56,883 nt of DNA from Raillietiella orientalis (GCA_036172245.1 JAYWIR010000156.1:1-56883), one strand, 5' to 3'; counted from the stretch's first letter, positions 3,758 through 41,522 are shown. The notes: a model not told the origin generated them from the sequence alone. Numbers and translations are program-made.

Positions 3758-3963
3758 TCGGCGCGCTGCCGGGCGCTCTGGCCCCGGGGCGTTTCTGCCG
3801 GCATGCAGAGATCGACTTGGAAGTGGCACGGGAAAAGGGAATCCGTCTGTCTAATTAAGACAAAGCATCGCGATGGCCGTTGAAGCCACGTGAAGTCTGC
3901 CCAGTGCTCTGAATGTCAAAGTGAAGAGATTCAACCAACCGCGAGAAAACGGCGGGAGTAACT
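3758..3963 (+). rRNA. Degenerate 28S rRNA gene fragment ending just upstream of the R2 site
   Basis: GGGAATCCGTCTGTCTAATTAAGACAAAGCATCGCGATGG...CTGCCCAGTGCTCTGAATGTCAAAGTGAAGAGATTCAACCAA...AAACGGCGGGAGTAACT matches conserved LSU sequence, with substitutions and a deletion. Left edge approximate. Confidence 0.92.
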
Positions 3964-6900
3964 TTTTTTATTTCCATATGTCTAAAACTGGATAGGAGGC
4001 CCTAGGAGGGAAAGCGCACCAGGGATCAGCGTGTTGCGCTGATCTGGAATGTGTTTCGAAGGTTCACGAGTAGATGAATTGCTAGCAATCCGGAACCGAG
4101 GACACAATTCTTGGGGAAAAGTCGCATTTCTTTTGTGCGCATTCGGACCGATTACACTGTGCATGGGATTGGAGGACTTTTGAAAGTTCCGAGGGACTGA
4201 GTTCCTATATATTATGGATATGAGCACACGTTTCCTGGACGTGAAGTAGCCTTCATTTGTGGACAACCAGATCTTTTCATGTTCTCAAAGTCGAATCGGG
4301 ATCGGATGATCACTCGCAGTTGGATCAATTCCCTGAACGCGGCACTGCTCCAGGACACTTGTGGCACGGATGTCTCCCGCCAGGCGTAACGGGATGATGG
4401 TTTGGAGGTTACGTGAACAGAGTAAATGTTTGTGGCTGCTCGGATGACTGAGCACACGATTATCAAACAAATTGCCTTTCTTGGTGTGCATTCAGACCGA
4501 GGCAGCTGAAAACAGCGTTCGGATGCATAGCGATGCGACAGGGATCGTGTCCACTTGATCCTGGAATCCTTGATTCTGATAATCCCTGCCAGCGCCTGCA
4601 TATTTGTCGATCTTCTGGATCCTTGCGGTGTCCATTGATTCCTTCCGATTTTCGAATGGGATCGTAACGTCGAGAATGAGCATAGGTTGACCGTGCCAGG
4701 CAACGAAGTGTGGACGTATCGAACTGTTTCTAGATGGATCTGAGCGGTTAACTGGAATATTGCTCCCTTTGCGTCAGGCAAACCCCTCTAGAACGTTCAG
4801 GACTTTTTTGTGGCTTATCGGAATTGCAGCCCCAAAGTCCCTGGTGCAATGGCACAGCACGTGAACAAGCCTTTCCTTGGTATATAGGCAGTGACGACAC
4901 GCCTCGTGGAACCCCGGCCCCTTCCCGTTTTCATTTAGAAATAATTCATTGTGGCGGGCACGATGTATAAACAGCCAATGGCACGAACGATTAAGGTCTG
5001 GTCGTTCCATGAAGGACATGGATGGTGGATGAAGGGCAACGCAGTCTGTGATGCGTCCCTGATGTGGTTTGCCTCTAAGAGTATCGCTTCTGTTGAGTCT
5101 TTTGGGACCGCGAATTGATCGATCGACAATCTTTTGATCGGTTTCGCGAATTGTCTCGTCGTTACTTCATTGGAGATTTGACCAGCTCTGAGAGACCATT
5201 TTAGGTCAAGCCTTTTTGGGGCTTCCCGAGCACTGGTGCAGTAGTCGGCTGATGGAGAGCAGGGTTGTCGTTACCACGGTTATATCCTTCTATCAAGGTG
5301 TCGGTTGGTTGTTTACGCACTTTTCTGCGCACATTCCCTTCCAATGAGGCCCACGCCATTTCTTTAATGCTTGGAATAGCAAATGAAAGGATTTTGAGTG
5401 CAAAGTCTGCTGCCATTATGTTGTCTTCCTCTACAAATATCACAAAACCTAAACTACCTTTTGCTGAAGACACATGAGGTTATTCCGTGGATGATGCTTA
5501 AGTGAGCGGGAGAATTTCTTCCCTGAGGGCTTTCTTGATGGTTTCTTTCAGCCCAATCGAATAACTTCTGGGTTTTGACCCCATGCGCATGGCGTGGACG
5601 AACGATGGAAAGATGAACGTTTCGAGGTCATCAATTTTTAGCCATGGGTCGGAATGCTCCTCCAATGTTTTTCTCATGAGAGACTGGAAATTCGATTGCA
5701 GATCCTCGCTATGCATGGCATCAAACCCTATTGACCTTCCCAAGTGACTGTGGGTGCCAATTTCCGTGAGGGCAGGGAAGAGCTCAGCTGCCACTCGGAA
5801 TCGTCGGGTTCGTACCGTTCTTGGAGCACGTGGGTCGTATTCAAATGATGCCCACTTTTTAATTTTTATCGGTAATCCAAGTCTGCGGCAACTGCGCTAC
5901 GGCAATCGAGCGCGTTCTGGAGAATTTTTGCATCCTTGGTAAGGACCACTAAATCGTCAGCGTAGGCCAATTTGATTGCTTTTGGTATTTGGTAGTCTAT
6001 GGAAACACATAAAGGCTCCATAGTAATACTGAAGAGTAGCCCTGAGAGTGGGCACCCCTGTTTAACTCCCTTTGCAAGGGGTATGAATGATGGAAGACCT
6101 TTAGGGGTAACAATCTGCGTAGCATTTTCCGAGTACATGTGACAGATGAGCTCCGTGAAAGTGTCACCGGAGTTCGCACTGTAAAGTGTCCTTAGCTGCT
6201 GGGAATGAGGTACGGTGGCAAACGCATCTTTCAAATCAATCCATGCTATACTCAGTGCTTGGTGATGTCGCTTGCAATACTCCATTTGATGTCTGAGCAT
6301 GGTGTTATGCTTCAGTACTCCATCAAATGGTGAGAAGCGCTTTTGATGCGGGCCGAGGATGTTATTGGGTGTGATCGGAACTCGCAGGCTTCTGGCCAAG
6401 CACTTGGCAAAAATTTTGGCGATCGTCCTGCCGATAGCTATAGGGCGGAACTGCGAGGAGTCTTCTTCTTGCTCAGTTGATTTCTTGGGAATGTAAATTG
6501 TCGTGTACCCTTTCCACTCCTGTGGTGTACGGCGATGTGCTAAGCATATGTTTTATAGTGGTTAAGGGAATCGGCATTTAGGGTCCAACTTTTGAAGCGC
6601 GGAATAGGGGATACCGTCCGCTCCAGGGGCAGTGTCCTCGCACGATCGCAGGCATTCCATGCTTTCGCGGCTATCGAAGGTGGTCACATCCACCTGCATT
6701 TGGACAGATTCGTCGTCGGGATCCCATGATATTGGGTGAAAGTTTGAGCTCGCCATGAAAAGTGCAGTGAAGTGCTGCTCTGTTGCTTCCGGACTTGCAT
6801 TACACTTTACCGGATTGCCGTCAAGGATCAGTCTTATAGCTGGACGGCGGTTTCCATTGGAAAGTCTTTGCATAGATCTCACAGTCTTCCTTGAGTGCCG

Positions 6901-8135
6901 ATCGTTATTGGCGGCAAATCAAACCAGCGTAGCTTCAGAGTGCTTCTAATGAGGTCATCAGCTATGTTTAGCCCCATCATCGCCAGGCCCCAGCGTTGCT
7001 TCGAGTTTTTTCGAGATTTCCCAGTTTCCGAGTTGATTCTGCAAGCGGCTCGGCAATATTCATCGTAGGTCTCCTCTCAGCTCTCGGGTATGGTGTTTCA
7101 GCGCACGTGCGTCTCACCGGGGAGATTTTCTCTCTATCGGCAGAGTTTAGCTGCTCCTCAGCCATGAGAACATCATAGCGAGAGCTGAGAGCGAGGAAGG
7201 TGCTCATTTCAGGTAGGCTGTTTCGTTGAGATATCCTTTGGCGTAAGTCGCACGCATCGATATTTCGGTGACGTCGCAGAGAGACCGTTCGCCATTGGTT
7301 GTCGTGTTCGGGCGCCCTTGTCGGAGTGGTTTGAACGGGAGCCAGATTAAGGGTTCGCGAGTGGGAATGGGTGGGGTGTGGTTAAAAGCTTGCCTGCTGA
7401 CCTCGCAGGCCAAGCATGTAGTTTCTTTCGGCAGGTCTGGTTATGGTTTCGTGCCATCGAGCGTGATAAGCGGAGGCTTTTTGATCATGGAAGCGTTGGC
7501 CACAATTCTGTTCCTGGCCCAGTAGGGGTGCTGACACTGCGACAGGTATTCCTTTCGGTTCGCATCGATGTCCCCAAACCGGAATTTGCACCCGCGCGTT
7601 CCATCTTTTACACTCCAGCAGGGAGTCGCGTTGCGGAATCCAATGCGAGGTTCAGATATGTCGCCGCAAGGACCCACGCATGCTCTTCACCTGCTGAGTT
7701 GAGGTGCTCCATCTGCATCTGGGCAGCCTGCAGACCAAACAATTCGTCGTTGTCAGGTGCACTACCATGATAGCTGGTATTTCATCAGGTAACGGTTGTC
7801 CATGATCCTCTGCCGTCCTGTTTCCCTCGTTGTCAATGATGTCGGGTAAGGGCGTCACATTTCTCGGCACCGATGGTGCCACTTTGCAAGTGCTCGACCG
7901 TTTTCTGCGTGCAAGCGGACAGTCTAAACTAAAGTGATTACTTACTGAGTTAACAAATTGTAGACCTTTCCTATCCGTGGCGGCTGCTGCTTCTGCGGGT
8001 CGTAGGGTTTTCTGGGGTAAACACTTCTGTTTCTTCCGCCTTCCCTCCACCGATCGCACATATGCTAGGTGTACAGGGGGGAGAATGTGGCACTCCCACC
8101 GTTACTGTTTCTTCCGGGGAAAGCTGCTCGAGCGA
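3964..8135 (-). mobile_element. Utopia/NeSL-like RLE non-LTR retrotransposon, copy U1 (most complete, decayed)
   Basis: 3' end AATAAAAAAA abuts 28S. RLE LILDVTIPFENRKE..QKIDKY; CCHC CRHCLYTKERLVHVLCHC; RT WIDLKDAFATVPH, GVKQGCPLSGLLF, LAYADDL (ORF 5866..6399); domain 0 APGADGIPY; C2H2 zinc-finger remnants at 7440-7790. Many frameshifts. Confidence 0.9.
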
Positions 8136-8173
8136 ATTCATTTTTTTTTTTTTTTTTACATGGCGGGAATTAC

Positions 8174-11100
8174 TTTATTGTAACCAAGTTTACATGAATA
8201 TGTTCGAGTACAATATTCAAGTACACTGGAGGAGAGTGCACGAGGGATCAGCGCGTGGCGATCATCCGACAAGTAGTAATTATCGTCCGGTCAGACGATT
8301 CATGAGCGTAAGCTGACCTTTTATTTCGAGTGTGACTTCGGGGTTCAATGTTGGCACATTAGAGGCAGGCGAAGGAATCGTCTATGTTTAAAGCAGATGG
8401 CACTTAAATTCCGGTCTCACGAATTATGGGCCAAAAAGCCGCCTTTATTTTCGTTTGTCTTCAGAAGTCGCAAATATAAAGTTTTGCGAATAGATTGCAT
8501 TGCACATGAGTGTTTGAAATTAAAACGATAACTGGTCGCATGAGTTCTGTAGAAGAATTGGCTTCGAATTTACAGTTGGATCAAGTCTTGGCAAGCAGCT
8601 CGGCACCAAGGGGTGATCGGGACTGCTAGTGCACCATTGGGATTGATTGATGGTTTGACAGAAAGATGACTGGCATAAATGTTCCTGGCTGCACGATTGA
8701 CCGAGCACAGGAGTTTAGGAAGTAGTGCCTTTATTTCTCGGGCATTTACGCCTAAGCGACTCAAGACGGAATCATTTTTCGGGAACCAGCTGCCCAAGGA
8801 TCCGATGACAATTGCTTCTGTCTTACTTGGTAGCCCTGGTTCCGGTATTTGCCCTGTATTTCGACGTAGTTGTCGCTCTTCTGTTTTTTTGCCTCATCCA
8901 TGGACTCTTTGCGATTCTCGAAGGAAATCATTACGTCCACGATGAGCAGGCGCTGTCCATCCGAGGCGACGTCGTCCGGTCGGAGATTGCTGTTGATGGA
9001 AGGGTCCGACCGGTCAACCGTAAAGTGGCTCCATTTTGGGACGGCAGAACGCTCTATCATTTATAGTATTGCATCATGTTTCGCAGGGATTTGGGATCCT
9101 ACATGCTTTGTACAATGGCACAACACGTAGGCGAGTGTTTCCTTCAGTAAAGCGCAGTGCCGGCAAGCTTCATGGAATCCTGGTCGCTTGCTGTTTCCAT
9201 TTATGAACATTTGGCTCAGGCGAGCTTGATGAATGAATTTGCAGTCACAGTGACTGTTTAGATATGGTCTTCTCATGAAGGCCATGGACGCTGAGTGGAG
9301 GGCGACGCAGTCTATGGTGCTTCCCTGATCTGGTTTGGCTCTAAAAGTATCGCTTATCTTGAGTCTATTCAGACCGCGAATTGATGGAGCGACGATCCTT
9401 CGATCGGTTTCTCGTAATATCTTGTTCTTTACGTCAATGGAGATTTGGCCTGCTGTAACGGACCATTTCAGGTGCAGCCTTTTTGAGGCTTCTCGAGCTC
9501 TCGACCAATAGCCGTCTGGATCTCGCGACGGTTGATGGAAAGGAGGGTCCATGTTTCCGTGGATGCATGCTGCTATGAGAGTATCAGTTGGTTGCTTTCG
9601 CACTTTTGTGCGAAAAGTTTCCTTCAGTGAAGCCCAAGCCATTTCTCTCATGATCGGATCGGGGCATGAGAGAATTTTGAGTGCAGAGTCTACTGCCATT
9701 GTGTCGGCTTCCTCTGCTAGTATCACGAGAACTAAACTACTTTTTGCCAAAAACCCTTAAAGGAAGTCCGTGGAGGATGCTTGAGTAAGAGGAAAAATTT
9801 CTTCCTTCAGGGCTTTCTTGATGGTTTCCTCCAGCCCACTCGAATGACTTCTGGGTTTTGACCCCATGCGCATGGCGTGGACGAACGATGGAATGATGAA
9901 CGTTTTGAGGGCATCAATTTTTAGCTATGGGTCCGAATGCTCCTCCAATGTTTTTCTCATGAGAGACTGGATATTTAATTGCTGATCCTCGCTTTGCATG
10001 GCATCGAACCCTATTGACCTTCCCAAGTAACTGTGAGTGCCAATTTCCGTGAGGGCAGGGAAGAGCTCAGCTGCCATTCGGAATCGTTGGCTTCGGACCG
10101 TTCTTGGAGCACGTGGGTCGTATTGAAATGATGCCCACTTTTTGAATTTTATCGATAATCCAAGTCTACATACTCAGTGCTTGATGATATCGCTTTTAGT
10201 ACTTCATCTGGTATCTGAGCAGAAAATTATGCTCTGAAACTCCATCATACGGTTAAAAGCCCTTCTGATGCGAGCAGAGGTTACGCTTGCAGGTGATTCA
10301 GTCTTGTAGTCTTCTTGCCAAACCTTTTGCAAAGATCTTCGCGTACGTCTTGCTCATTGCTATCGGGCGGTACTGCAAGAGGTCTTTCATGTGTTCAGTT
10401 GTAGGTTTAGGAATGAGTATCGTCGTAGACACCTTCCACTCTATAGGAATGCGCCGCTGTGCTAAGCAAATGTTAAAATTAGATTTAAGGAATCGCCCTC
10501 CTTGAAGTAGGCCGACAGTTCGGCGGCCACGTCAAGAGACGCCGACGCAGCAACCTTCTTCCAAGCCCTCGCCGGAACGTCGGGGGCCGATTTGCTGATG
10601 GGGCATGAACCCACATCCACGGGATGGGAGACGAGGGTCTCTCGTCTTCGGTCGCAGGTTTTCCGGCTTCTTCCGGCATTTCTGCCGTCCAACGGCCGCC
10701 TTCCTACACACACTCAACTACTAGTTGGCTTCACTTGAAGGAGCTCGCGAAAAACGCGTGCGACCACCAGGCCGCCCTAATGAAGTGTCGGTTTAGAATG
10801 TGGCACAACCACTTCTAAGGTTACTTCAGGGGAGGGTTGATCGAAAAAATCCAACTCAATTTGCGTCGGAGACGCCACTGTGAGGGTCGAGTGGCTAGAA
10901 TTGCACGGGGAATGAGTTTCCGCGTGTATCGTCACAGGGAAGCTCACAGGTGGCAGGGGACGCAAAAGCTCCTCGAGTTCCATGCTCATTCTGCGATAGA
11001 GGAACCCCTGATTTTCTGGTAGCAATGGCACAGGTGGTTCATTCACGGTGGTCGGACTAAGGTGTACTGACGTGGGGGATAACACTGCTATCGTGCTCTT

Positions 11101-11785
11101 CGATTTCTTCGTCTAGCAGGGATTCAGTCAATGTCGAACTTCCTCCTGGTGGTGAAGCACTAGCACAGCTACGATTGAGGTCTACCTTAATGTTTCTGAC
11201 GCGGTTACTCACATCCGCGGCCGCAGTGGCAAAAACACATTTGACTAACGGCCACGGAACTGAAGCGTCAGTGACATGGGTCTGCCACAGTTCTCTTTCG
11301 GTTGAAATGAATCTTAGTGACGGTGGCATCGTTTAGCCACTTCAATATTACACATGCTTTAACTCGGTGGGAAAAGTACAGTACATAGTGGTTAATACCA
11401 TATCTGTTTCTGGGGAGTTTAGGGATTACCGGTTCGGGTCGTAATGCCTCCTTGCCACGTGGATGCGAATGGTTTATCGTACACATTAGCCATTAATTAC
11501 AGGTGGTTAATTCGACTACGGCGGCTTTGATTCCTCAACCAGGCCTCCAAGCAGGCGCTTTGCTTGTAGATTTGAGGTGCTCCATCTGCATCTGAATAAC
11601 GGGCAAATCAAACAACTCACCGTAGGCACTTACACTATTAGGATGTCCTCTTGGGTAAGGAGAGCTGATATTTCATCAGGAAGCGGTTGTCCATGATCCT
11701 CTGGCTTCCTGTTTCCCTCGATGTCTATCATGTTGGGTGGCGGCTTTACATTTCATGGCACCGATGGTGCCACTTTGCAAGTTCG
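8174..11785 (-). mobile_element. Utopia/NeSL-like element copy U2 (RT core deleted) plus rearranged N-terminal scraps
   Basis: RLE LRPDDVASDGQRLLIVDVMISFENRKE and GSWFPKND; KPDQG, FIHQARL and CRHCALLKETLAYVLCHC (ORF 9061..9750). The RT jumps at ~10165, omitting the QG and YADD motifs. The 3' end TTTATTGTAACC follows a 28S target remnant. Confidence 0.88.
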
Positions 11786-14450
11786 GTTTGGACCCATTCG
11801 TAGCGAGTGGATGAAGGAGGGAAATATGAAAGTTTTCGTGGCATCTATTTTTTGCCATGGAGCAAGGGTTGCATGGAGCACCTTTGCTACTCTGGTTGGA
11901 ATTTCCTCATCTAGGGAGTCACTCTGGATGGCGTCAAAGCCTACCGATCGCCCAAAGTATTTATACGTGCCGGCATCCGAGAGGGCAGGCATAGGTTCAC
12001 CCGCAACCCGAAATCGTTGCTTGTCGGCAGCACGAGGGGACCGGGCGTCTAGGTGGAGAGAAGCACACTTTTTCGGGTTAATTCTAAGCGCAAGACGGCT
12101 AGCTATCCCACTCGCACAGTCGAGCGTCCGTGGTAAAGTAGCCGGGTCTGCCGTCAAAGGAACGAGATCATCAGCATAGGCCAAGACATTGACGCCTGGA
12201 ATGTTCTGCTTGATTCACACACACAGCGGTTCCAGGGCAATGTTCAACAGGAGGCCAGACAGAGGTCAACCCTGCTTCACGCCCCTGGTGACCGCAATGG
12301 GGTCAGTTAGGTTTCCAGTGGTGACGATCTGGGTGCTGTTTTGAAAGTACATCTGGCAGATAAGCTCTAGGAGGCTATCGCCAGCACCAACACATTGGAG
12401 GGAGGAGAAGAGGTGGGATTGCGAGATTGAGGCAAAGGCGTCCTCCAAGTACAGCCAGTCAACGCACCATGTGCAACGATAACGCCTGCTGTAGTACATC
12501 TGTTGCCTCAGCATGAAATTGTGCTCGAAGACACCATCATAAGGAAGGAAGCCCTTTTGCTGTAGCCCCAATACCCGGATATCTTAGATCCACTACCGCA
12601 TTTGCCGTGCGAGGCGTTTGGAAGAAAGTTTTCGGATGGTGCGACTGATCTCAATCGGGCGAAATTGGGAGAGGTCCTCGAGGTGGGCATCCTGCTATTT
12701 TGGAATGAGGGTCGTGCGCGAGTTTTTCCATTCCGGCGGGATCCGGCGGTGTGCGAAGCAAATGTTGAAGATTGCAGTGAGGCAGCAGAGCTCGGGGTCG
12801 AGGCGGCGGAAAGCCGAGTAAGAGATGCCGTCTGCTCTCGGAGCAGTGTCTTCACATCACCGCAAGCAGCTGGCAATCCCCCTCGGGTCGAAGGGAGATA
12901 TGTCAATCGGCTCATAGTTCACAGAAAGTTCAGAGCTGCAGCTCAGTGGCTGGAACCCGGGCGTAGCCGCAAAGAGATGGGCGAAGTACGCCTGCGTTCC
13001 TTGCCGGTCAACATGACACTTAATCGGGGGACCATCCAGTATAAACGGTATTGTTCGGAGGCGGTTCTGATTGTACATCCTTTGGAGGGATCCAGGTGAC
13101 GTACTCGAGGGCCTCGCGTGTATCGTGGGCACAGAAAAGAAGCCTAGTCCATTAGCATCTCTGATTGTGCCATAGGAATAGCTAAGTGCACGAATAGAGA
13201 GGCCTCATCTGTCCACAGTTGGTGGGTGAGCCCCAATGTCTTCCACGAGTCTGTTTCTCTGAGGGGATCCGACCTCCTTCTCCTGAGCTCCCTTTGGCTC
13301 CCAGAGGCAGGTCACTGACGGGAAGGCGTTGCATGGCGAGCAGGGACAGCGTTGCTGTCGGGTGAACCTGTAAACTCTCCAATGTCCTCTTCCACCAGGA
13401 CAGCAAATCGAGAGTCGGGGGCAGGAATGGGAAGGCGGGTGGATTCACGCTCACTCGAGGTGATACTCATGTACGAATGGCCGGAACCAAGGGGCAGGGC
13501 TCCCAAGGCACTAGTAGTGCGTCTCCGACGGTTCGTCACGATCTGCTACTCCTGATTTGATGAGGAATCAGACAGTGGGACAGGCGGATCGCTCGTCTTG
13601 GAGTGTGCGAGGTGTCCTGCGGGAGCGAACGGACTGGTAACCGCGAGGGATACGCGGCTTGACGGTTCACTCTCAGAGGTGCTGAGGGTGCTTTTTGCCC
13701 TCGTAAGCCCTGCGTGTATCGCCTCTTCTCAGCCCTGCCCTGCGAATCATGACACAGTGCATGGTTTGAGAGAGCTTTGCGATTCAAGAGGTGTCTATCG
13801 CAGTTTCGCTCCGGGCAGGGGAATGGCGCCAGCTCAACGAACCGGATAGCTCGGGGACCGCAGCGGTGCCTCCAGACGCGAATTGGCACGTGCTCATTGC
13901 ACCGCCCACACACTCCGCCCACTCACCGTTATCCAAGGCGCCATCCTGAGGTGTCGGAGCAGCGACCCTTTGGTAGATTTGGCTTGCTGTGTTGTGGTCT
14001 TCCATCTACCTCGTGGAAGTGGGCAGGGCATGCTGGTGCTGGTTGGGAGGTATACCAGGAAAACGTCATCCTCAGTGAGGACCGACGGTGCAGCAGGTGT
14101 CGGTTGTCAACTAGTAGACGAGGAGGCGGTCTCTATCTCGGAAGGCAAAGGCGGTTCATTCACTCTCCGTGTGATCGGGATCGGATTCTCATGTGCTAAG
14201 GAGCGAGGACGCGGTGGTAATCTCCTTGGTGCACGCTCACTGGGTCGAAGATCTGAGTCTCGCATTACCAACTGTTTATTACGCGCCTGGGAGAGCCGCA
14301 TTTGACGTTGTAGCCGAGGGATGACCGGGCGCTGTTGTCTGCCTTTGGGATTTTTTCGCTCGACAGCACGAACATATGAGGGATGCACAGGACGAGCGGG
14401 TGGAGGAGAACGACGCACCAGTATTGTGGCTGAATCCCTCGGGGAGGTTT
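11786..14450 (-). mobile_element. Utopia/NeSL-like element copy U3 (N-terminus to RT thumb)
   Basis: LAYADDLVPL, INPKKCASLHL, LAPWQKIDATKTFIFP (ORF 11753..12184); QKGFLPYDGVFEHNF, GVKQG; zinc finger CPERNCDRHLLNRKALSNH. Confidence 0.88.
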
Positions 14451-14465
14451 GCTCAAGGAGTAACT

Positions 14466-16438: not shown

Positions 16439-17075
16439 AATACTGTACGATGCTCTCAGGGGGTGTCTGGCATTGCACTTGGTTACCGTCTAATATGTAC
16501 TTCCTCTACAGCTGGATCAGGTCTTGATAGGCGGCGCGGCACCACGGGACGGTCGGTGTTACGCTGATCTTGTCCGTCTTGGATGAGACGTGGTCGGCGT
16601 AGATATTCCTAGCTGTACGGATCACACAGAACACACAAGCTTAGGGCGAATCGCCTTTATTTCGTGGCTGCTCAGACCCATGCAGCTGAGGACCGAGTCG
16701 TTCTTGGGGTGCCAGCTGCCTAACGATCCAATCACAAAGGCTTCAACTTTGACGTTGTAGTCCTGTTTGTCGTATCTCCTGCGGAGCTCGGCATATTTTG
16801 CGAACTTGAGTTTTCTCGCTGTATCCATCGTTTCCTTCCGGTTTTCGAAGGGGATGCATACATCCACGATGATCATGTGTTGTCCATCGGATGCGACCAC
16901 ATCAGGACGCAGGCTGCTATCAATAAATGACTCTGTTCTATTGACAGAGAAGTGGCCCCATTTCGGTCGAGGAGAACGCTCTTGCATGGCTAAGACGGCA
17001 TTATGCCTGGCTGTGATTGCTGTTCCCAGATGTTTGGTGCAATGCCATAACACATGGGACAGTGTTTCCTTCGGG
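16439..17075 (-). mobile_element. Utopia/NeSL-like element 3' fragment U5 (RLE endonuclease plus 3' UTR)
   Basis: ORF 16622..17053 RHNAVL...LRPDVVASDGQHMIIVDVCIPFENRKE..RKLKFAKY...FVIGSLGSW is a PD-(D/E)xK RLE domain. Confidence 0.9.
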
Positions 17076-29994: not shown

Positions 29995-32900
29995 TTTATT
30001 TGTAAAAGCAAACCACAATCTTGAAGGGAAATTCATTCTTTCAAGACACAAGGAAAGCCCATACAGAAACTTCAGCCTGGAAGGATCACCATCACGCAGG
30101 TTGCCTTCCAAAAGAAAGAAACGGAGGGAGAGGTGTACAAAATAAACAAAAGATAAGAGAACAAACAAAAAAACAGTGAAGAATGGGGTCAGGGATCTTT
30201 GGTATTAAACGTTCCTCATCTTCCTAGAAGCGCTGTATGACGATGGCGACTTCCCTGGAGACTTTTCTGGGCAGATGAGGCCACCTGACGGCTCCCTTCA
30301 TAAGGTTCGCGTTTATCCTGGCGGCGTCCATTCGCTGCGAGCTCCTTGTAGCTCACGGCGGGCCGCTACGATGGCGCGGATGCAACAGATTGTTTCGATC
30401 ACAGCGCCTTTATCCAGTCCTTCTTCACTGAAGAAGCGTCGCAGCAGGTGAATGACAGTGTCCTGGGGACGACAAAGTGCCGAACCAAGTCTCCGCCATA
30501 ACTCCCGCAAGTCACTGCACTCAAGGAGAAGGTGCGTAAGCGATTCTATCGCCTTGCACCTGAGGCAGTTCGGGGAGGCGACTCCCTCGGAAACCAAGTG
30601 TCTGCGCTTATTGCACTGAAATCCCCAGTGCAGGAAGAGCAGAACATCCTGTTTCCATCGAAGCGGGAACACGGAGGTGTCCACACACAAGGAAGGGACC
30701 ACGAGATCTTCGGGGAGTAATCCAACAACCTCACTCCACCAAAGGAGTCTCTTTGCCGGGTAACGAGAGGTGGCAGCTTCTACCAACACGCTTGTGTTGC
30801 AGCCGCTCAGCAGTCTTTCCACTCCTGCAATGCTGCAGAAGAACTCCCACCTTGCCGGTTGGCTACTGTCGTTGTTTGCCCTGAGAGCAGACAGCGCTGC
30901 GGCGATGGGAGAGACGGCTGCCCGGGACCAAAGCGACCAGTCCTGTAGGATCACTCCTAGCGGTTTGCGTAAGAGGCCCTTTAGAAGCCGCAGTTGCTCT
31001 GGACGAACAAATAAAGTGGAAGTCCAGTGCTCCAGAGCTTCCTGCTGCCAAGGATTCCAGTTGGAGGGGCGGCAGGAAATCCAGGAATGGGCTAACAACG
31101 AGGACAGATGCCTCAGTGGGTAGCCAAATCCAGTTCTCCGGCGAAGGTTGCGCGGCAGCAACGAAGGCAATCCTGCACTGCCCACACAACGCTGGAGGAT
31201 GTGGCGAGCCGGAGCACACCAGTGACTAGACCACAATTTCCCACATAGGGATAGAAGCCGGAACTGCACTTGCAGTCCAATCTTCTGGATGGTCAGAATG
31301 CCCAGGCCTGCGTCCTGGCATGGCGCCACCAAATCATTAAGTCGAACCCTGGATCGTGCAGCGCCTCACAAGACCTTACGTAGGAGACGCTGCGCTTGGA
31401 GTTTAACCACATAGGGAGGAGGACAAACAAAAACTAAGGGGCGGAGGAGGGGCGCAAGAGAAGTGTTCCATATGCACGCCCTTTCCGGCAAGACGAACTT
31501 GCCTTCCAGGAACGGGCCTAGAGCCATCTCTGCCTTCTGAGGATAGGCCGACCACGCTTCAGACGAGCAAAAGTCGCCCAACGGAGCGCCAAGGTACTTA
31601 AAATACCTGACGGTAGGGATTCCCAGGCGGATCCAGTCGGCCTGCTCCTCCCACGACGCACCCACCGGCACGACGGAGCACTTCGCCCTGTTAACGCTCA
31701 TGCCCGCTCCACGACGGATCAGCTCGAAGAAGTCTTCGACCGAGTCCGGCGGAGTGGACATGGGCAACAGAAGCAGAAGGTCGTCTGCCTATGCTGCCGC
31801 GGACGGAGTGCACGGAGAGGCGCTGGGCAGGACGACCAGCGTTAGCTTGTATGCTTTCAGCATCAACTCAAAGTAGATGCTGAAGAGCAACAGGCTTAAT
31901 CTGTCGCCCTGTCTTATGCCTCTGCGCACGGCCACACCGTACACGCGGGAGCCACTGAAATGCAAGTTGATAAGCTCGTGGCTTCAGCAGGAGCGCAAGT
32001 ACAGGAGAAGTTGGTTCGGCAGCCGAAGACGCTCCAGGAGCTCCAAGAGGAGTTCCTGGTTGACGCAGTCGAATGCTTTATGCAAATCTACTGCTACTGC
32101 CAAGGCTCCCGGCCTTTCTCTCGTCCGTCCGCACTGGCGCTCGCAGTTGGCAGAAGGTCTTGCCGCTGTTCGGCTATCCGCCGCAACGCGCTCTTGCAGC
32201 TGCCATTAGGTGCGCGCCAAAAGAAGGTTAGCATCCATGGATCTTCTTAGTACAGCGTAAGACTGCTCCGGGCTTACCACGGACCTCGCGATCTTCCTTA
32301 GGCGCGTCACCCTCAGCTTCGAAAACAACTTGACGTCCGTATTCACTAACGCGATCGGACGTCAGTTGTTGAGATGGCGCAGATATCTTTCTTTCGGAAG
32401 GAGACGCACCCTCGCTGAGCGAGAGAAAGAAGGGACATCGCCCGTCACCCTCATCAGCGTCGAGAGCCTGAGCACCAGTGGGGCGAGTTCCGCCGCGAAG
32501 CTCTGATAGAACTCCGCGGGCAGCCCGTCCTTACCTGGCGTCTTCCGTTTCTTGAGTCCTGCGATGGCGGAAGACACTTCTTCCGCCGTTAAGGGCTCGT
32601 CGAGACGGGCGCGTTCCTCCTCGCCGATGCTGTGTGCACCCCGCGGCAGAAGCAGTTCCGAGAGGATTCTCTCCGTTGGGGATTTGGCGTAGAGCAAGGT
32701 GAAGTGACGCTTCAGTGTTCGCCTTACTTCGGCAGGAGCCGTGCATTCCCGGCCTCGGTCGTTGAGCAGAATAGCCGCTCCAGACTGCCTGACCTGGAGA
32801 TCGGCCCTCGCCTTGTACTCTGCGAGGTGCCGGACTTCCGCACGTCTAGAGAAGGTACGCGCCTGCAGAAATGCTCTGCTATTAGCCACGCCTTTCCCGA

Positions 32901-35900
32901 AGCCGCGTGGTAGCAGGTGCAGGGGGAACCGGTCGCAAAACTCGCGAACCGATCTTTTAAGATGGTCCCAGTCTGCGAGCTGCCGGATGGCAAAGCCGCG
33001 AAGGAACTGGCGAAGATGCTCCGCCGCCTCCGGATGACTGAGCCAATCCGCCGGCATCCTCCAAACATTGTTCGGAGGTCCCTTGCCCGGCGGGAGTAGC
33101 TCGAACTCCAGCCTATCATGGTCCCATAACGTGGACGGCGCCCTGCCTCTCCTTCTCGCTCGTGAGAGTAGGTGTTCATCGAGGTGAACGTGATCCACGC
33201 ACCTTTCCAGTCCAGGCTCGCCGGCTTTCAAGTTACGCGCGTGCACCGACGCGCATGCCTCTTTCACCCGCGACCGATCCGCCAGGGACCGCGTCTCGTT
33301 GGAAAGCAGGTGGACGTTGAAGTCCCTGCAGCGAGATGTGCCACTCTGTCTCCGGAGTTCCTGAGCCATTGGCTCTCCAGCACATCGAAGAACTCGATTC
33401 TTTCGGCGCGCAGATGACAGCCGCTCGGCGCGTAGACGTTCGTCAGGACGAGGTCGATTGAATCTGACCACTTGAGTACAAGTTGGCGTATTCGCCCTTC
33501 CTGGTCGAATCGAACGCTGCACACCGCTCCCGCCATCCTACTATTGACGAGAAAACCGACTTCGCACGATTGTGCAGAACCTTCTCGCCAGTACAGGGTG
33601 CCACCCGCGCGCTGTTTAATTCCGGCAACCTCCGCGTCGGAGATGTGATGCATCTCCTGAAGGATCGCCAAGTCGAAGTGTCGCAGGGTGTCTGACACGT
33701 GGCGCCTCTTTCCGTCCCTGCGCATCCCGTTGACGTTCCGACAGGCTACGCTGAACCCACGAAGAGAGGCGACTTCCTGCATTAAGGCTGGGAAGGTGAG
33801 CACAGGTTTCTCGCCTTGTCCGGTAAGTGGTCACGAGACAGAACAGCAGATTTTGGAGAGGGGGCATCTCCATTCTAAGCCGCCTTGCTTGTTGCCGGTA
33901 GCTCAGAGGTGAGGTCCATCCCCTCCTCTTTGCTCCCCGGCGACAGATCCTTTTCGGCAACCACGCACTTCCGGGTCTTCGGGAAGCGATTGCGCGGTTT
34001 CGGGCGGGTTTCGCGCTGTGTGCTCTTTCTGTCGGACTCTGGATCGGAATCCGACGGTCGAGCGCTTGCCAGGCGCTACTTCTGTTTCCCGGAATTGAAG
34101 AAATCATTTGCTGCCTGTTGCTTAGCGCTTTCTGCTACTGCGGATGGGACTTTCGTCCTTTTAGCCGCAGCAGCAGCTTCCCGTTCCATCCGCGAGAGGA
34201 CGACTGCACAGGTGGAAAGGATCGCAATCTTTTGGGGGGATGGTTTTGCGGGTTTCTTGCGTCCACTCACCTTCACACAGAGCTGCGAGGACCTTGACGG
34301 TTTTTTTTTAATTCTCTTTCTCACCTGCATGCAGCCGTCTTCCTTCGCGTCGCAGTTATGTTTACCCTCCTGAGATGGCGCTGCGTCCGCGGATGTAAGA
34401 GGCGCTGCCTTGGCTGCCTCTTGAAGTGCTGTCTCCGCGCAGGCGTAAGCGACTCCCTCAGCGATCGCGAGAGGCGCTGCCTCTTCCAGATCGGAGGGTT
34501 CGCGCGTTGCGTTTGCGACCGCTGGGAGCGCTGCTGTAGCGGTTGTGCTCGCCCTGGCAGTTTCTTCCTTGTCCGCAGTAGGCGCTGCGTTTGCGCGCGA
34601 GGGCTGCGGGTTTGCCGGCTGTTTCGTCGCGGCACTCGGCGCCTGGGGCACCGTGGCCGCTGCAGGTTTAGCCGGCACGGAGTTGTTTGCCCGCGGGCGC
34701 GATTTTCCCGCATCGGGCGAGCGACCGCATTCCTCGCCACTTGCTGGGGCCCTGATAGGAGGCTTCTTGCCCTTCGGCGCACTCTCTCCTGCACTGAAAA
34801 ATTCGTTGCGAGGTCTCGGTGAAAGGTCGCATTCTTCGTGAGCTTCCGTCGGCTCGGTAGCCTGAGGCTTCGCCGCGACGAGTTTTTTCATGTTTTTCTC
34901 CCCTTTTTTGTGGAGGGGAGAAAGAGTTTTCTGCGCATGCGCGCTCGCGGTTTTCGCAAGGCTCTCCGAACTTTTGAGGTTTTCTTCTCTCGATTCGCGG
35001 CGTTTATTTCGCGATGCGATACGCGCTTCGTTCTTTCGCTTTTCGTTTTTTAGAAGGAGCTCCGGGCACGTTTTTTTGTGTGCCCGGGCTCGTGGCAGTA
35101 ACGACCAACGGCCGAGGGACACTTCGTAAGGCGGTGACCCTCCTGCCCGCATTCCGCGCACGCAAGCGTTTGCCCGGCAAACCACAGGCGGACGGTCTCT
35201 CCGTCCACCTGCAGTCGCGTGGGCATTGCCCTCCGATCCTCCATCGTCACTCGCACCTGCGCGAGCCCGCTGTGGTGGTCTGCGAAGCCCTCAGCAGGGT
35301 TTGGCAACCTCCAAAGCGCGTGAACGGAGGCGAATCTTTCAAGGGCCTCCACGACCTGCCGTTCCGAAAGGCCCTTACACACTCCACTCAGCCGGACAAC
35401 GAACGACTGGTCCGTAGTCAATGGGAGTATTTCCTGTCCACGAATGAGCAGCAGCGTGTGCAACAGACATTGCACGAGTGCGTCCTAACTGGAAACCCCC
35501 AGTAGCCACACCCCATCGTGGGCATGATGGACTCCAGCTGGCCTTTTGGAACTCCAATCCGTTGGAGTTCCTGGCCGAACTGGCGCCCAACCCGCTCAGG
35601 CATAACGACACTTACCTTATACCTGACTGCAGGCGTGTGGCCATTTGCTACATACGCCTGCAGCTCAGGGCTCTCGGGCGAAGGTCCCATCGTAGCCGCG
35701 AGGGCAGCGACCTGGGCGAACGTCCTCGCCATCGGCGAGCACAGTGGCTCCTTGCTAGCAGCCGAAACCTCCATCTCAGGAGCAGGTACCTTTCCCTTCT
35801 TGCGGCTGATGGTCTTCCTTGCTCCCATTGCAGCAGAGCAGAACAAAAACACACAAGAGTCAGCGTACTGAGGAGCGACGCAAAAGCACGTCCGTGCACG

Positions 35901-35930
35901 GCCCGCACTGATGCGGGAACGCTGATGAGG
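29995..35930 (-). mobile_element. Near full-length (~5.9 kb) Tx1-like non-LTR retrotransposon B, pseudogenised
   Basis: ORF1 35828-34076 (zinc knuckles, Ala/Lys-rich tail). ORF2 ~33782-30313: APE (RNVNG, LAILQE, TNVYAP, DFN, DHDRL), RT (KTPGKDGLPAEFY, DLHKAFD, GIRQGD, A*ADD with TAG replacing Tyr) and CCHC CLRCKAIESLTHLLLEC. AATAAA at the 3' end. Confidence 0.93.
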
Positions 35931-37902
35931 GAATCCAGGAATGTCCCGTATTCCTTCCGCTCAGCGAATGTGCGCCTCCTGCCGAAAGGCGGTGACTTGC
36001 GCCGTCTTATCAACTGCCGTCCGATCACCCTGGTGAACTCGGACATCAAGTTGTTTTCCAATCTGCGGGTCGCGCGGTTAGGAGGTATGGAGGAATCCGA
36101 GGTGAGCCCGCAACAACCCTACACGGTTCCCGGGCGATCCATGGAGGCGAACATCCTTTTTGGGGGTATTTGGATGCAGCTGCAGGAAGTCGTGGCGAAG
36201 CGAATCCGGGCTTCGCCGAAGGTCGCAGCCGCACGTAAGAAGAGCACGCGCCGACGGCAGGAGGGAACGCCAGGAGCACTTCTTCGGCGTATTCTTCGAG
36301 TTGGTGTTGAGAGCGTACATCGTATTCTCACGGCGTATTCTTCGGCTGTCGCTGCCTCATTTGCCAATCTTACATTGCCGGAACGGACGGATATTTGGAA
36401 TACATTCGGGACCCCCTCCTCCGTTTCCAGTTTCTTGTTTTAAACCCCCATATTCAGCGTAAGAGCGGGCTAAACGCCTGCTTAGGTACGATGTCTGAGG
36501 ACCGGGGAAATCCGGATCCACCTTAATCGCTTGGGGGCTCCACGTCGTGATGCTGATTTGGGCATCCTGAGAATTGAGCGAATGGAACTGCAGGTGCAGT
36601 TCCGAGTGCTGGCACTGTGTGCCGAGGTGTGGACGTCCCCCCTACTGTGCCTGAACACATTATCCAGCGGATATCCGCCGGCAGCGGAGGACTGCTCTCT
36701 CCATTGCCGGTCACCCAATACAGGAAGCGAGGTTTCTTCTTTCCATTGAGGCAATTGGCCTCACTTTTTCAAGCCCACTTGCGGATCTCCTTCCGTCCAA
36801 TGAACTGCGACGCTTGGAGGCAGGAGTCTGTTGAATTTTCGGCGGAGTTCACCCTGAATTTCTTCGCTCCCAGCACCATCTTCTTCGGCGACCGTTGGAA
36901 GAGGTACTGAAGGACGAGGTGAAGTATTCCACCCTGGCCACCACGCCTCTCGCCGCAGCGCTCTCTGCCCTCGGGGCAAGAGACGACAGCTGCCAACCGG
37001 CTAGGTGGGAGGTTTCCTGCATAATAGCAGGAAGAACGAAACTCAGGGTTGCCCGGAAGGCCAGTGAGTTTGCAGACGCCGCCACTCCTCGTGCTAATGC
37101 GAAGGGACTCCTTCGATGGGGAGAAGAATCTGGAGTCACCCCCGAATTACTTGTAGTCCCTTCACAGTGTGTGGACAGTTCGCTGCTCCCCCTTGCTTGG
37201 AAACAAGCCGTGTGGCTCTTCGTTCACTGGCGTTTTCAGTGTAACGAGCGATGGCATCGTGTTTCCGGGGGGACTTGCTTCTGGACTGCGGTGTCCCACA
37301 AGGTGACCCTGGCGGAGGCTGGCAACAGCACCATCGCACCCGGAGGATACCGCAAGATACCTTCTGCAACGGTTCTTTACGCCTATCGGGCTGTCTACAA
37401 GCCAAAGGATTGCTACCGTCGGTTACATTCGCGCCATAGTTTCAGCCCGTCAGGCGCTGGTAATCAACGGGCAGCACAAAGAGGTAATCGGCAAAGCATC
37501 CTTCTACATGGGAGCGACCACCAGATGGCCTCATTTGACAGAGGAGTCAAGAAGGGATCTCGCCGAAATGTACCACCGGTTTACACACGCCCCGCAGCGG
37601 CGCTCCAGGTAACCCTTGCCCCTCCCTCCACGTATTTGTTTCTGTATTTTTTTTTTGCACTTTCATCCCCATAGGCTCCGTAACTTTCCAGGTGCTCCTT
37701 GTTGTAATCCTCGTGAGTACGGAGCCTCACCAAAGACCCGTTACCCTTCCCTCCAGTTGTCGTATTTTTGTTTTGTTTTCCCCTAACTCCTCCCATGTTG
37801 CGAGCGGTTGGTTTACCCGGCCTGGGTGTCGGTAACTTCTCTTTGTTCCTTGTCGTTTCGTTGGTTGGGGACATTGTCCCTGACCGGTTTATTATAAATA
37901 AA
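35931..37902 (+). mobile_element. Tx1-like element C, 3' half with internal deletions, plus strand
   Basis: LLPKGGDLRRLINCRPITLVNSDIKLFS, APRRDADLGIL, WLFVHWRFQCN; U-rich 3' UTR; AATAAA at 37897-37902. Confidence 0.85.
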
Positions 37903-38889: not shown

Positions 38890-41443
38890 ACAGTCTCGGC
38901 CCGTGAGTCCCATGCAAAGTCCCGGAAAATGGGATCAGGACAGAAAAGGAACCTAAAGGCGGAGTCAGTCAACATAATGTCGGTTTCCTCGACTGACAAA
39001 ACTTGGGCATCCTGATGTCTAGCTTTTGCATTCCGGCGGTGTCAGGCAATGGCATCCTTTGCCTGCTGGGGCTCCTCTCCACGACTTTCTAGCCCGTTTC
39101 ATCACCAGAATGCGGTTCTCCACTCGTTTCACGTCTCGACTGTTCCCGGTTCATCAGACGGTCTGCCTGAAGGCGCCCCAAGTGCTGCACCCCTGTTATA
39201 GGGGTGGCATCCAGTCTTTTGACGAGATGTTGCGTAGGTGAAGCTTCTCGCTGGACCCCTTGTCTAGGGGTTTTATGCGAACGTCTGTGGTTGGAGAGAG
39301 CCTTCTGGTTTCGAAAGCGTTGCCCGCACTCTGGAACGGGGCAGATGAGATCTGGCTGGATGCTCGCAGGTCTGATTGGCCTCGGCCCACAATTGTGGTG
39401 CCAGACAGGAATGGTGATCCTGCCGCCGCACTGTCGGCAAAGAAGTCTGGTCTCCGTGATGGGAATCCAGTGAGCCGTGCGAATGTGGCGGCGAAGGGAG
39501 CCCAGGGTACGCTTAGTGTCCTTTCCAGACGAGAACCATCTGCAGCGCGGGAGAGGACACGGCACGCTTGACGGTGCCGGGAGATAGATGCTTAAGATAT
39601 CATCCTCTGAGAGTACCGTCGGCGGAGGAATATCGGACTGAGCACTCTTGCTTTGGTTGGAGGCCGTCGTAGGCTGAAGAAGTTGAATGCTCGGTTCTTC
39701 TGCTCGAGCTTGCGGATCTCTCGCTCTTGGTGACTGCGTTTTCGTCCCAAAAGATTCCTCGAATCCGAAGAAGGAGAGAAAAGTACGCATCCAATTTGGT
39801 CTCTCGGATTCAACAGCGCGAAGGCATGCCGGATGCAGCGGTGGTCCTTGTTGCGAAGGAGTTTCATCCCGAATTACTCGAGTGGGCTCAGGCGGAGGAG
39901 GAGAGCTCTCAAGGAATATATCCATCTCCGTCTGAGACGCTGAGGCTACGGGTAGCACTGAGCCCTGTGGGCTGGGCACAGCTTCTCGGTTGTCTGTTTG
40001 TAGCTGCGGGCAGAGTTCCACTGGTTGAGGGCTGCCGTGCATCAGGTGACCTATGTGCGATCGGGACAGCGGAGTCAGTAGCACTATGGGAGTTGCCATG
40101 AGGCGGCGATCGCGTATGAGCATTCGTGGGGTGGAGGAGAGTGGCAAAAGACACGAGGAGGAACCAGGAGTCCAGGCCCTGAAGGGTGATCTTGGGGGTG
40201 GAGGAAAGTCTTCGTCCAGCAGCAAGTGAGATGGTAGTCGGGTGGTGGACTGACTGTCTTGTTGCTCTGACTGTGGCTGATGGCTGTGTGTTCGGCGTGG
40301 TTCGCTTGGGCTGTTGCGGCTTAGCACATGCAACAGCTCGTATTTGCAGAATTGCATTCCACGGTTCGCTTCCTCTGGACGAACCAACCGATCCTCTGCT
40401 GAGTGCTGATCCGCAGCCATCTGCGTGGTGCACAGATGGGCCACTGAGCCTCTGCCTTGGTGGATCAGTCCTGGATTGGTCACAATGCGGTCGAAAACAT
40501 CCAAATTATCTGTAAGTGTCGGCTTTTGTAGAATGTCTTGATGAGCTTCGCGTGCCTCACCCTTGGGGTTATCCCCCGCATGTTTCTTGCGGAAATGCTG
40601 TTTCCTAAAATCCTTTTTGTCGAAGGATGATTCGCACAAAGCGCAAGGGTAGAGCAGGGATCTCAGCATTGCTGGTATTATCTTCAGCGAAGGGGAGTTC
40701 CGTTGATGAGGTACGCAGATGTGGCCGTCGAAGTCAGACGACCTGTTATCGTAACGACCGCAACCGCGGCAAAAGTATTTTGGGGTAGCACTGTGGGTGA
40801 CACCGTGAATTCGGGCAAGGTGTGTCTTTATGTTTTTTGCTCTGTTTTTGGCTTCCGTGGCCCCAATCGCAGCTGGGCAGTGTGGGATGGGGCAAGGACA
40901 CGGGGATGGGGCGTCAAAGGCTATGAAAAGCCGACGTTCGTCCGAGAGGAAACATGGCGGGCTCTGCATGGCTTCCACGCTAAAGTTCGTTATTTCGAAC
41001 TTGGGACAGCCAATCGGAGGCGACTCTGAACTCGCGGACCAATGAGCGCGCTCGGAAGGGGCACTGAGTTTCCCGCGCCTGCAGTAGAGGATTCTTTTCT
41101 CAGGTTCTTTCAGCCACCGAGGCCGTCTGTGCCACGCGTGACCGACTGTGGTTTGTTGCCACAGTTCTCGTTCGAGCTTACAGCACAAGTTCTTTCCACA
41201 GTCCCTCTTACCTCCCCGTGATGTCTACCTTCTGGCTCTCGCCATAGCTGAGGTTATGCAGGGGATGATTCTCGTCCATAGCAGCCACAGTTGTGGTGGC
41301 ACGCGGTCCAAAATTGGTGAGGATGTCCACCAAGTCAAGAAAATTCACAGAACGCAAAAATCACAAACTGTTGCAACGCGGAAATAGGAGAATTTCGCTG
41401 GCTAATGCTAACCTGTCCGGAGCTCACGGGGCGCGTCCGCACC
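38890..41443 (-). mobile_element. Utopia/NeSL-like element 5' end: 5' UTR plus 699-aa open N-terminal region with six zinc fingers, plus a thumb scrap
   Basis: ORF 39089..41188 has two CCHH/CCHC/CCHH triplets. The 5' end abuts 28S at 41444. 38890-39010 encodes ETDIMLTDSAFRFLFCPDP. Confidence 0.85.
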
Positions 41444-41522
41444 GACTCCCTTAAGATGGCCAAATGCCTCGTCATCTAATCAGTGACTCCCATGAAAGGG
41501 TTAACGAGATCCCTACTGCCCC
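41444..41522 (+). rRNA. Short degenerate 28S rRNA fragment spanning the R2 site
   Basis: GACTCCCTTAAGATGGCCAAATGCCTCGTCATCTAATCAGTGAC...TTAACGAGATCCC, versus conserved GACTCTCTTAAGGTAGCCAAATGCCTCGTCATCTAATTAGTGAC. Confidence 0.9.

Follow-up and report, generated by a model that had tools for sequence, protein, structure and literature searches.

The closest described counterparts of the locus reported here are retrotransposons that carry a restriction-like endonuclease (RLE). A Myb domain is a hallmark of R2 according to a 2026 review in RNA (PMC13580325), which also describes the inventory of site-specific elements by Fell et al. (2025), and R2 families are on record whose 5′ junctions are displaced and whose 3′ untranslated regions (UTRs) resemble 28S, all in sense orientation (Kojima et al. 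2016, PMC5035012). Utopia was defined by flanks of U2 small nuclear RNA (snRNA) and by a plan of zinc finger, reverse transcriptase (RT), then zinc finger and RLE; its hosts include Ixodes and Parasteatoda, its specificity runs from strict to weak across families, and Utopia-1_NVit shows tandem insertion in U2 genes (Kojima and Jurka 2015, PMC4640811). In the NeSL clade, the planarian families LIN9_SM, LIN24_SM and LIN26_SM are joined to the antisense strand of 28S (PMC4640811, S6 Fig). We analysed a single stretch of 56,883 nucleotides (nt) from Raillietiella orientalis (GCA_036172245.1, JAYWIR010000156.1), hereafter the window. It likely holds dead copies of a further site-specific family, with a three-zinc-finger module, no Myb, an RT, a CCHC knuckle and an RLE, inserted antisense into 28S between GTAAC and TATGAC.

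The insertion site was read directly at the junctions. On the plus strand, the 28S word GGCGGGAGTAAC (3951–3962) passes into TTTTTTTATT, ATGGCGGGAATTAC (8160–8173) passes into TTTATTGTAACC, and GGAGTAAC (14457–14464) again into TTTATTGTAACC. Directly after all three words stands TTT(T)ATT..., the reverse complement of an element terminus ...AATAAA. The three 3′ ends show homology to one another at their last bases and in a hairpin of the 3′ UTR, and all halt at the identical 28S nucleotide. Two 5′ ends adjoin the continuation of 28S, which restarts with GACTCCCTTAAG at 41444 and with CTTTTAAGGAAGCC at 19160, leaving gaps of 3 nt and 7 nt, respectively. The 28S fragment on the left of the site ends in ...GGGAGTAAC; on the right, the fragment beside the element copy that we call D begins GAC (TAT lost), and the one beside copy C begins CTCTTAAGG (here CTTTTAAGG; TATGACT lost). 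The site reads GTAAC^TATGAC and lies 16 nt upstream of the R2 site (GTAAC^TATGACTCTCTTAAGG^TAGCC), the nick position being ambiguous by 1 nt because a T is shared. From the junction ends on the left and right, the priming nick is placed just 3′ of GTAAC (or of the T that follows it) on the sense strand of 28S, and the second-strand break falls 3–7 nt rightward. Since the RT and RLE frames lie on the minus strand and the 28S fragments on the plus strand, the elements are antisense to the rRNA. R2-clade elements insert in sense at AAGG^TAGC; the junctions here are at GTAAC^TATGAC and antisense. We regard site-specific antisense insertion at GTAAC^TATGAC as well supported.

An earlier note, made from this sequence, had proposed a retrotransposon of the non-LTR type (LTR, long terminal repeat) with an RLE, targeting 28S in antisense at one nucleotide position. 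The five junctions that it listed are all present where it placed them, to within a base; RT and RLE are found on the minus strand, and junctions, Rfam alignments and frame orientation bear out the target, the position and the orientation. It had put the site about 15 nt upstream of the R2 site: the side was right and the distance is 16 nt. Its three 3′ junctions exist, all within one tandem array and not at three separate loci, and the T run at 8141–8157 is 17 long, which corrects its count.

Three decayed 28S fragments on the plus strand flank the elements. The left one (3830–3962; large-subunit (LSU) model ~2121–2265) terminates in ...ACGGCGGGAGTAAC. Over 3830–3975 the Rfam model LSU_rRNA_eukarya aligned at LSU 2121–2273 (91.9 bits, E = 5.9e-22), with a ~10-nt gap in a hairpin and mismatches at core positions, and Rfam found no additional 28S in 2300–3830. 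The right one (19160 to ~19640; LSU ~2273–2530) has CTTTTAAGGAAGCC as its first bases; the Rfam alignment over 19100–20300 covered LSU 2242–2589 (131 bits, E = 5.9e-33), its part before 19160 being flagged as uncertain, and the true 28S start is 19160, with TATGACT (7 nt) absent in comparison with the left fragment. The second right fragment (41444–41532), whose first bases are GACTCCCTTAAG, scored 53.6 bits (E = 1.7e-11) over 41350–41532; its true start is 41444, and TAT (3 nt) is absent relative to the left word. In the whole-window Rfam scan the gathering score was passed by the first 28S fragment only. Because core positions are mismatched or gapped in all three, we take them to be pseudogene pieces. 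They make up two separate 28S loci, at 3830–19640 and 41444–41532.

Counted by itself, the 28S 12-mer shows no excess in the window: with ≤2 mismatches allowed it matches seven times where 3.4 are expected, a number attained in 3 of 100 shuffles. The evidential weight lies in adjacency, because homology between element ends sets the junction positions independently. By arithmetic, the chance that the adjacent 12 nt match the 28S word at ≤2 mismatches is ~4e-5, and that the adjacent 8 nt match exactly ~1.5e-5.

The copies at the site are well separated from each other, with 66–76% identity at the nucleotide level. Codon comparisons of the RT in seven pairs (Nei–Gojobori counts, stops excluded, 92–331 codons) gave proportions of nonsynonymous differences (pN) of 0.22–0.34 and of synonymous differences (pS) of 0.62–0.87, the latter saturated, for a ratio of ~0.27–0.39. 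Stops in the RT numbered 2 in 350 codons in copy A, 6 in 434 in copy B2, and 1 in 218 and 0 in 129 in the others. As pN is well below pS, the copies are separate lineages that diverged under purifying selection before they died and that retained one site, and a ratio of this size, against ~1 for dead duplicates, argues that they are not duplicates of one accident. Four diverged lineages at one 28S nucleotide, with a fifth copy at another fragment, are strong evidence of inherited site specificity.

Read on the minus strand, the array runs from the right 28S fragment through copy C (a composite), an 8-nt 28S word, copy B2, an unassigned piece, copy B1, a 16-nt tag followed by A17, and copy A to the left 28S fragment. 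At least four copies thus stand head-to-tail inside a single 28S site, and copy D adjoins the second 28S fragment, 22 kb away. Copy A (3963–8140, minus strand) is the most complete, at ~4.2 kb, with a 3′ UTR of ~630 nt and the terminus GGAAATAAAAAAA. Its parts follow in the order 5′ UTR, one three-zinc-finger module, RT, linker, CCHC and RLE, 3′ UTR, and residues 395–1226 of proteins P0008/P0010 map by tblastn to 6879–4597. Copy B1 (8174–10941, minus), delimited with tblastn, has a full 5′ end (TTCCCTGTGAC...), a 3′ end in ...CTTGGTTACAATAAA and internal deletions; it carries KPDQG, FIHQARL and a CCHC knuckle (CRHC...H....C). It resembles C at both ends: the 5′ ends are homologous, and the 3′ ends can be aligned and have their last 15 nt, CTTGGTTACAATAAA, in common. 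In the segment between B2 and B1 (10942–11797, minus), 11547–11782 resembles the N-terminal region of copy A (73.7% identity with 7674–7891, blastn), and 10942–11546 gave no protein-level match in tblastn with relatives.

Copy B2 (11798–14456, minus) comprises a 5′ end, one zinc-finger module and the RT as far as the LAPWQKI thumb motif, and is truncated on its 3′ side; residues 393–893 map to 13099–11798 (tblastn), and its 5′ start, TTGAGCAAACC, aligns with the start of A. The 8-nt word GGAGTAAC (14457–14464, plus) separates the 5′ end of B2 from the 3′ end of C. Copy C (14465–19159, minus) extends from 5′ UTR through 3′ UTR to the terminus CTTGGTTACAATAAA, and includes two zinc-finger modules (18969–18230 and 18202–17461, 74% identical), an RLE piece (17083–16572) and an RT cut at its 5′ side (16402–15198). 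An isolated fragment of the same family (19787–20191, minus) matches the linker, residues ~855–989 of P0010 (tblastn, E = 1.5e-10). Of copy D (39092–41443, minus) the 5′ part only is present, an open frame of 711 codons that encodes two diverged modules of three zinc fingers each, with a match to the P0010 N-terminus (tblastn, E = 1.8e-8) and a weak zf-C2H2 match (E = 0.0013).

The element ends show further regularities. The 5′ start TTCCC(C)TGTG is common to C and B1, and the starts of A and B2, which are the downstream partners at the internal junctions, lie within ~6 nt of each other, ~95 nt inward of it, a near-coincidence such as RNAs with a fixed start would leave. A short hairpin is common to all three 3′ UTRs, with compensatory changes in 4 of 12 pairs among these three sequences only. 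The whole-window Rfam alignment carried 28S past the left junction into this hairpin of copy A, until 4031; the likeness at 4013–4031 (GCGCACCAGGGATCAGCG against 28S GCGCAUGAAUGGAUUAACG, 13/19 nt) is probably due to chance and not a captured piece of 28S. Zinc-finger modules vary in number: copy D has two diverged ones (six fingers; frame in 39092–41224, minus), C two, and A and B2 one each, which suggests more than one duplication of the DNA-binding module. A 159-nt repeat of 100% identity (15588–15746 and 16819–16977) lies within copies that are otherwise 25–35% diverged, one copy of it in the endonuclease region and the other breaking into the RT of copy C. It stems either from a conversion or duplication of recent date or from faulty assembly.

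For the protein domains, 140 stop-to-stop open reading frames (ORFs) of at least 110 codons were scanned. RVT_1 was found in four, all on the minus strand, three of them in the array: 5869–6552 (A), 11756–12214 (B2) and 15180–15641 (C), with E values of 4.6e-24, 1.3e-10 and 3.8e-5. The best match of the copy A RT was to solved R2 structures (E = 1.4e-19), with LINE-1 behind, and the ORF at 16625–17164 aligns to the R2 endonuclease region (E = 3e-10) with RPD, IVDV and K...KY in register. None of the 140 ORFs matched Exo_endo_phos, the apurinic/apyrimidinic endonuclease (APE) domain. A LINE-type RT, and CCHC followed by a PD-(D/E)xK endonuclease, without APE, place the elements among the RLE-bearing non-LTR retrotransposons (R2/NeSL/R4/HERO/CRE group). 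No Myb domain was found at E ≤ 5 in seven N-terminal ORFs of A, B2, C and D, in which decay could hide a weak domain, nor in eight scanned proteins of the clade to which the window copies belong; 3 of the 16 scanned proteins, from another clade, have it. Ulp1/Peptidase_C48, which marks NeSL sensu stricto, had no match in the window ORFs. At the 5′ ends no ribozyme of hepatitis delta virus (HDV) type or other Rfam family was found at E ≤ 1, in copies that are decayed and for a class of ribozymes that is hard to detect. The N-terminal module (C2H2, CX2C...HXC, C2H2) is shared with arthropod relatives, and the whole conforms to the Utopia plan of 1–3 N-terminal zinc fingers, RT, and zinc finger plus RLE.

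To place the RT, the 228-residue domain of copy A was searched with HMMER against 1.84 billion representatives (E ≤ 1e-3). Among 13,156 matches the best 150 had 25–42% identity, and the nearest named members come from spiders, ticks, a springtail and a crayfish. Of 263 proteins with a blastp match to an RT reference, the 198 covering at least 330 residues were kept, four were added by hand (three APE outgroups and P0156), and thinning at 62% identity left 132 rows, to which the three window rows were joined. In FastTree the three window copies group together (support 100) and are sister to 45 arthropod proteins (99), within a weakly supported group of 98 rows (86) that includes Ulp1-bearing proteins. 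A quick IQ-TREE search under a mixture model, run on 65 rows chosen from the FastTree clades and repeated, again grouped the window copies (100) and joined them to 19 arthropod proteins (98). There the links to the Ulp1-bearing, Myb-bearing and oomycete RNase H–RT anchors are unresolved and the Ulp1 grouping dissolves; the Utopia-type oomycete anchors P0259 and P0221 fall outside the window clade, with the deep nodes open. Clade labels follow the 16 Pfam-scanned proteins and precomputed Pfam annotation. Against solved R2, one Myb-bearing protein scored 267 bits and a tick relative 187.

The earlier note had called the element Utopia/NeSL-like from four motifs. LAPWQKI, KPDQG and PFENR are exact in the window, and FIHRAR occurs only as FIHQAR. 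As relaxed patterns, three of them were compared across clades: xPWQK is present in 12 of 19 proteins of the window's clade and 6 of 10 of a second Myb-less clade (which includes tortoise, nematode, scorpion and thrips proteins), KPxQG in 4 of 19 and 4 of 10, and F-I-H-K/R-A-R in 10 of 19 and 6 of 10. Neither xPWQK nor KPxQG occurs in 8 Ulp1-clade, 7 Myb-clade, 5 oomycete-type or 5 basal proteins; F-I-H-K/R-A-R occurs in 2 of 8 Ulp1-clade and 2 of 7 Myb-clade proteins and in no oomycete-type or basal protein. FEN occurs in every clade and is uninformative. The label is only partly supported: Myb is lacking and the union with the arthropod clade is strong, but the deep RT tree is unresolved. 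The switch of target to rDNA that the note inferred is thus no more than a possibility.

The junction between B1 and A (8141–8173, minus) differs in kind from the others. On the element strand it reads ...GGTTACAATAAA, then a 16-nt antisense 28S tag GTAATTCCCGCCATGT (8173–8158), then A17 (8157–8141), then TGAATTCGCTCGAG..., and AATAAA (8179–8174) forms the last bases of the B1 element, directly before the tag. The spacing of AATAAA, 16 nt and A17 is that of a cleavage and polyadenylation site, for which reason we take it as a reverse-transcribed mRNA 3′ end. As far as a single junction can suggest it, this may be the fossil of a polyadenylated read-through mRNA, cut ~16 nt into antisense 28S; once the RT had arrived at the 5′ end of the A template, it would have gone on to copy such a read-through RNA. 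The junction between C and B2 has an 8-nt tag and no poly(A).

From these features we propose a cycle whose first, third and fifth steps we infer, whose second draws on the one fossil and whose fourth draws on the junctions. Transcription would be driven by a promoter of the element's own, because an antisense element in ribosomal DNA (rDNA) cannot ride the RNA polymerase (Pol) I pre-rRNA as R2 does. With AAUAAA as the element's last bases, cleavage and polyadenylation of the transcript would fall ~16 nt beyond them, within antisense 28S, and every mRNA would therefore bear a short tag complementary to the target. The zinc fingers would bind the protein to 28S. The RLE would then nick the 28S sense strand after GTAAC, the nicked 3′ end would pair with the tag and start reverse transcription precisely at the terminal A of the element, and a cut of the second strand 3–7 nt away would produce the small target deletions. 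Two routes could build arrays: a jump of the RT, on reaching the 5′ end of one RNA, to a second RNA's 3′ end, or recurrent insertion at the left junction. Afterwards the inserted rDNA fragments would have left the rDNA array and decayed.

Several observations weigh against this account. All the evidence comes from one window, and ~6 pieces do not allow exclusive 28S specificity to be claimed. No copy is intact, each being disrupted by stops, deletions or rearrangements; none lies in a working rDNA unit, and the array adjoins NDUFS7 and unrelated LINE fragments, not an rDNA array. The 5′ flank of B1 (10942 onward) is not 28S, and copy D has no RT after its frame and no 3′ end. The 16-nt tag matches the 28S consensus at 12 of 16 positions, with four mismatches, and the mRNA-tag model draws on a single fossil, because the tag lengths differ (8 and 16 nt) and one poly(A) is present. 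Some of these points would suit a family that is not strictly 28S-specific, in which the 28S words travelled with read-through or upstream-initiated transcripts, by 3′ or 5′ transduction, from one or a few 28S source copies to other places, where the target preference was weak or different. The array stands beside a single-copy gene; the left fragment measures just 133 nt and the right fragment of D just 89 nt; B1 joins non-28S sequence at its 5′ end; the poly(A) after the B1 tag shows that flank-carrying RNAs existed; and Utopia specificity itself ranges from strict to weak (PMC4640811). Separate transductions, however, would not be expected to leave left and right fragments that rejoin as one 28S stretch (LSU 2121–2265 and 2273–2530), on the element strand the 133-nt left fragment has no poly(A) after it, and the junction nucleotide is identical across four diverged lineages, so we judge such an origin improbable.

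A single chance insertion in a 28S pseudogene, multiplied by segmental or tandem duplication and implying no specificity, can be given very little credence. It would account for three 3′ junctions in one array, within 11 kb, in a region that is rearranged (the 159-nt repeat at 100% identity included). But neutral decay predicts pN close to pS, not a pN/pS of ~0.27–0.39 with saturated synonymous sites; the UTRs are barely alignable except at their termini and one hairpin; the breakpoints would have to hit element ends exactly, three times; and copy D lies at a separate 28S fragment, 22 kb off. A different question is how the array was built if family and specificity are both accepted. Successive insertions at the left junction, with target-site duplication and no template jumping, would place recognition wholly in the left fragment and the second-strand cut 8–16 nt leftward. 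Short left words (8 and 14–16 nt) do stand at each internal junction like target-site duplications, and Utopia-1_NVit provides a precedent in its tandem insertion in U2 genes (PMC4640811). We nevertheless think this route rather unlikely, because target-site duplication leaves the A17 between the tag and the next element unexplained, the two intact right junctions were cut rightward with deletions of 3 and 7 nt and not duplications, and the duplicated lengths are unequal. The family of dead, site-specific antisense elements set out above is the reading that we prefer. A wider version of it can be put forward tentatively: the elements might belong to an arthropod-wide, Myb-less RLE lineage specialised on an undescribed antisense 28S site, with its own Pol II unit, a terminal poly(A) signal that would place a ~16-nt rDNA guide on every mRNA, several lineages coexisting in the manner of R2 lineages, and template jumping that would yield mixed arrays.

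The rest of the window is mixed in content. Exons of a nuclear NDUFS7 gene (the 20 kDa subunit of NADH dehydrogenase) lie at 53340–53845 on the minus strand, in a low-GC stretch (32–38% from ~52 kb), so that the window reaches from accumulated transposons into genic DNA. The best matches of ordinary length to this NDUFS7 are 94–95% identical and belong to several arthropod orders, a degree of conservation too high for placing the host. The interval that separates the two 28S-flanked sites contains unrelated RT fragments of APE-type LINEs, at 22783–23616 (minus), 26986–27410 (plus), 31159–32844 (minus) and 35898–36368 (plus), and repeat pairs occur at 28476–29970/34461–35930 (80%) and 29973–30654/47751–48396 (73%). 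Two full-length matches to U4 snRNA, at 45521–45655 (plus; 44.1 bits, E = 1e-6) and 26354–26496 (minus; 40.5 bits, E = 1e-5), fall just short of the gathering score of 46 and may be pseudogenes or diverged genes in a repeat-rich region.

The junction word AAAGTTACTCCCGCCGTT was also looked for elsewhere. It occurs in metagenome contigs in 26 stretches at 25 loci, which were rejected as further insertions: their flanks are native rRNA variants, bacterial chance matches or short 28S-like fragments, and they gave no tblastn match to nine relatives. One of them, L022, encodes bacterial-looking membrane proteins, and it and L016, L012 and L006 contain no rRNA at the Rfam gathering score. In prokaryote genome contigs the word is present at eight loci, none with an RT or RLE. 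On L016, a metagenome contig of 1263 nt, ~45 nt of antisense 28S at ~1010–1055 begin exactly with GTTACTCCCGCC..., preceded by ...ACGACGAAA, in GC-rich, CAG-repeat-bearing, non-rDNA surroundings; this could be what is left of a comparable insertion, or a tag carried along by transduction, in some eukaryote. Stretches of ~20–40 nt identical to antisense 28S near the site are found in L026, L029 and L032 (Bathymodiolus symbiont assemblies) and in L001, L009 and L011, embedded in unrelated repeats; L011 has three, in tandem-like units.

If the three-zinc-finger module reads this 28S sequence throughout the clade, many relatives in ticks, spiders, crustaceans and springtails may share the target. 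Site-specific RLE retrotransposons are a model for target-primed reverse transcription and are in development for safe-harbour insertion into rDNA. The family would supply a natural second target site beside that of R2, a compact three-zinc-finger recognition module for comparison with the zinc finger plus Myb of R2, and a case of an rDNA parasite that has to live without being co-transcribed by Pol I. If the poly(A)-tagged junction is typical, it shows directly how target sequence included by read-through can set the position of the primer. The 28S stretch already exploited by R2, as well as by the transposon Pokey and by I-PpoI, a homing endonuclease, has been colonised at least once more.

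How the family compares with described systems can now be set out. NeSL-1-type elements, which target the spliced-leader gene, are likewise RLE-bearing and Myb-less and fall in a common FastTree group with it (support 86); the target here is 28S, and Ulp1/Peptidase_C48 was not found in the window ORFs. With R2, which has solved structures in R2Bm, R2Tg and others and is taken here as the sources drawn on portray it, the family shares a single ORF with RT, CCHC knuckle and C-terminal PD-(D/E)xK endonuclease, a conserved 28S stretch in which the two sites are 16 nt apart, and precise 3′ and variable 5′ junctions with small target deletions. Its orientation is opposite to that of R2, which puts the first nick on the 28S sense strand; it has neither Myb nor a match to an HDV-like ribozyme, and it ends in AATAAA with a fossil poly(A), whereas R2 is co-transcribed with pre-rRNA. 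Utopia, in the sections of PMC4640811 devoted to it, has the same 1–3 N-terminal zinc fingers, RT, zinc finger and RLE without Myb, the same precise 3′ and variable 5′ boundaries with occasional tandem insertion, and hosts among ticks and a spider. Here the flanks are 28S, not U2, and no Rfam match to U2 snRNA was found in the window. Utopia-1_IS also has the 3′ terminus AATAAAAAA; the two are otherwise unlike, and we set this resemblance aside as uninformative (PMC4640811).

The orientation, which the earlier note did not recognise from described families, has a precedent: LIN9_SM, LIN24_SM and LIN26_SM insert antisense in 28S in planarians (PMC4640811). All three are likewise of an RLE lineage, with 3′ ends joined to antisense 28S, and LIN24 and LIN26 lie ~80 nt from the site here, on the same 28S stretch. 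Compared by their junction figures, these members of the R5/LIN lineage (LIN9 included) differ in the nucleotides used, in having oligo(T)-type tails and not AATAAA, and in their platyhelminth hosts. The sections of PMC10946416 and PMC3160391 drawn on here have no bearing on GTAAC^TATGAC, and the literature covered holds no account of this site, or of this orientation beyond the planarian LIN families; Repbase and Dfam, which lay outside the search, may list the family. Measured against the published sections on these systems, antisense insertion into 28S was already known, at other sites, from the planarian LIN families, and what appears to be new in the window is the antisense site GTAAC^TATGAC.

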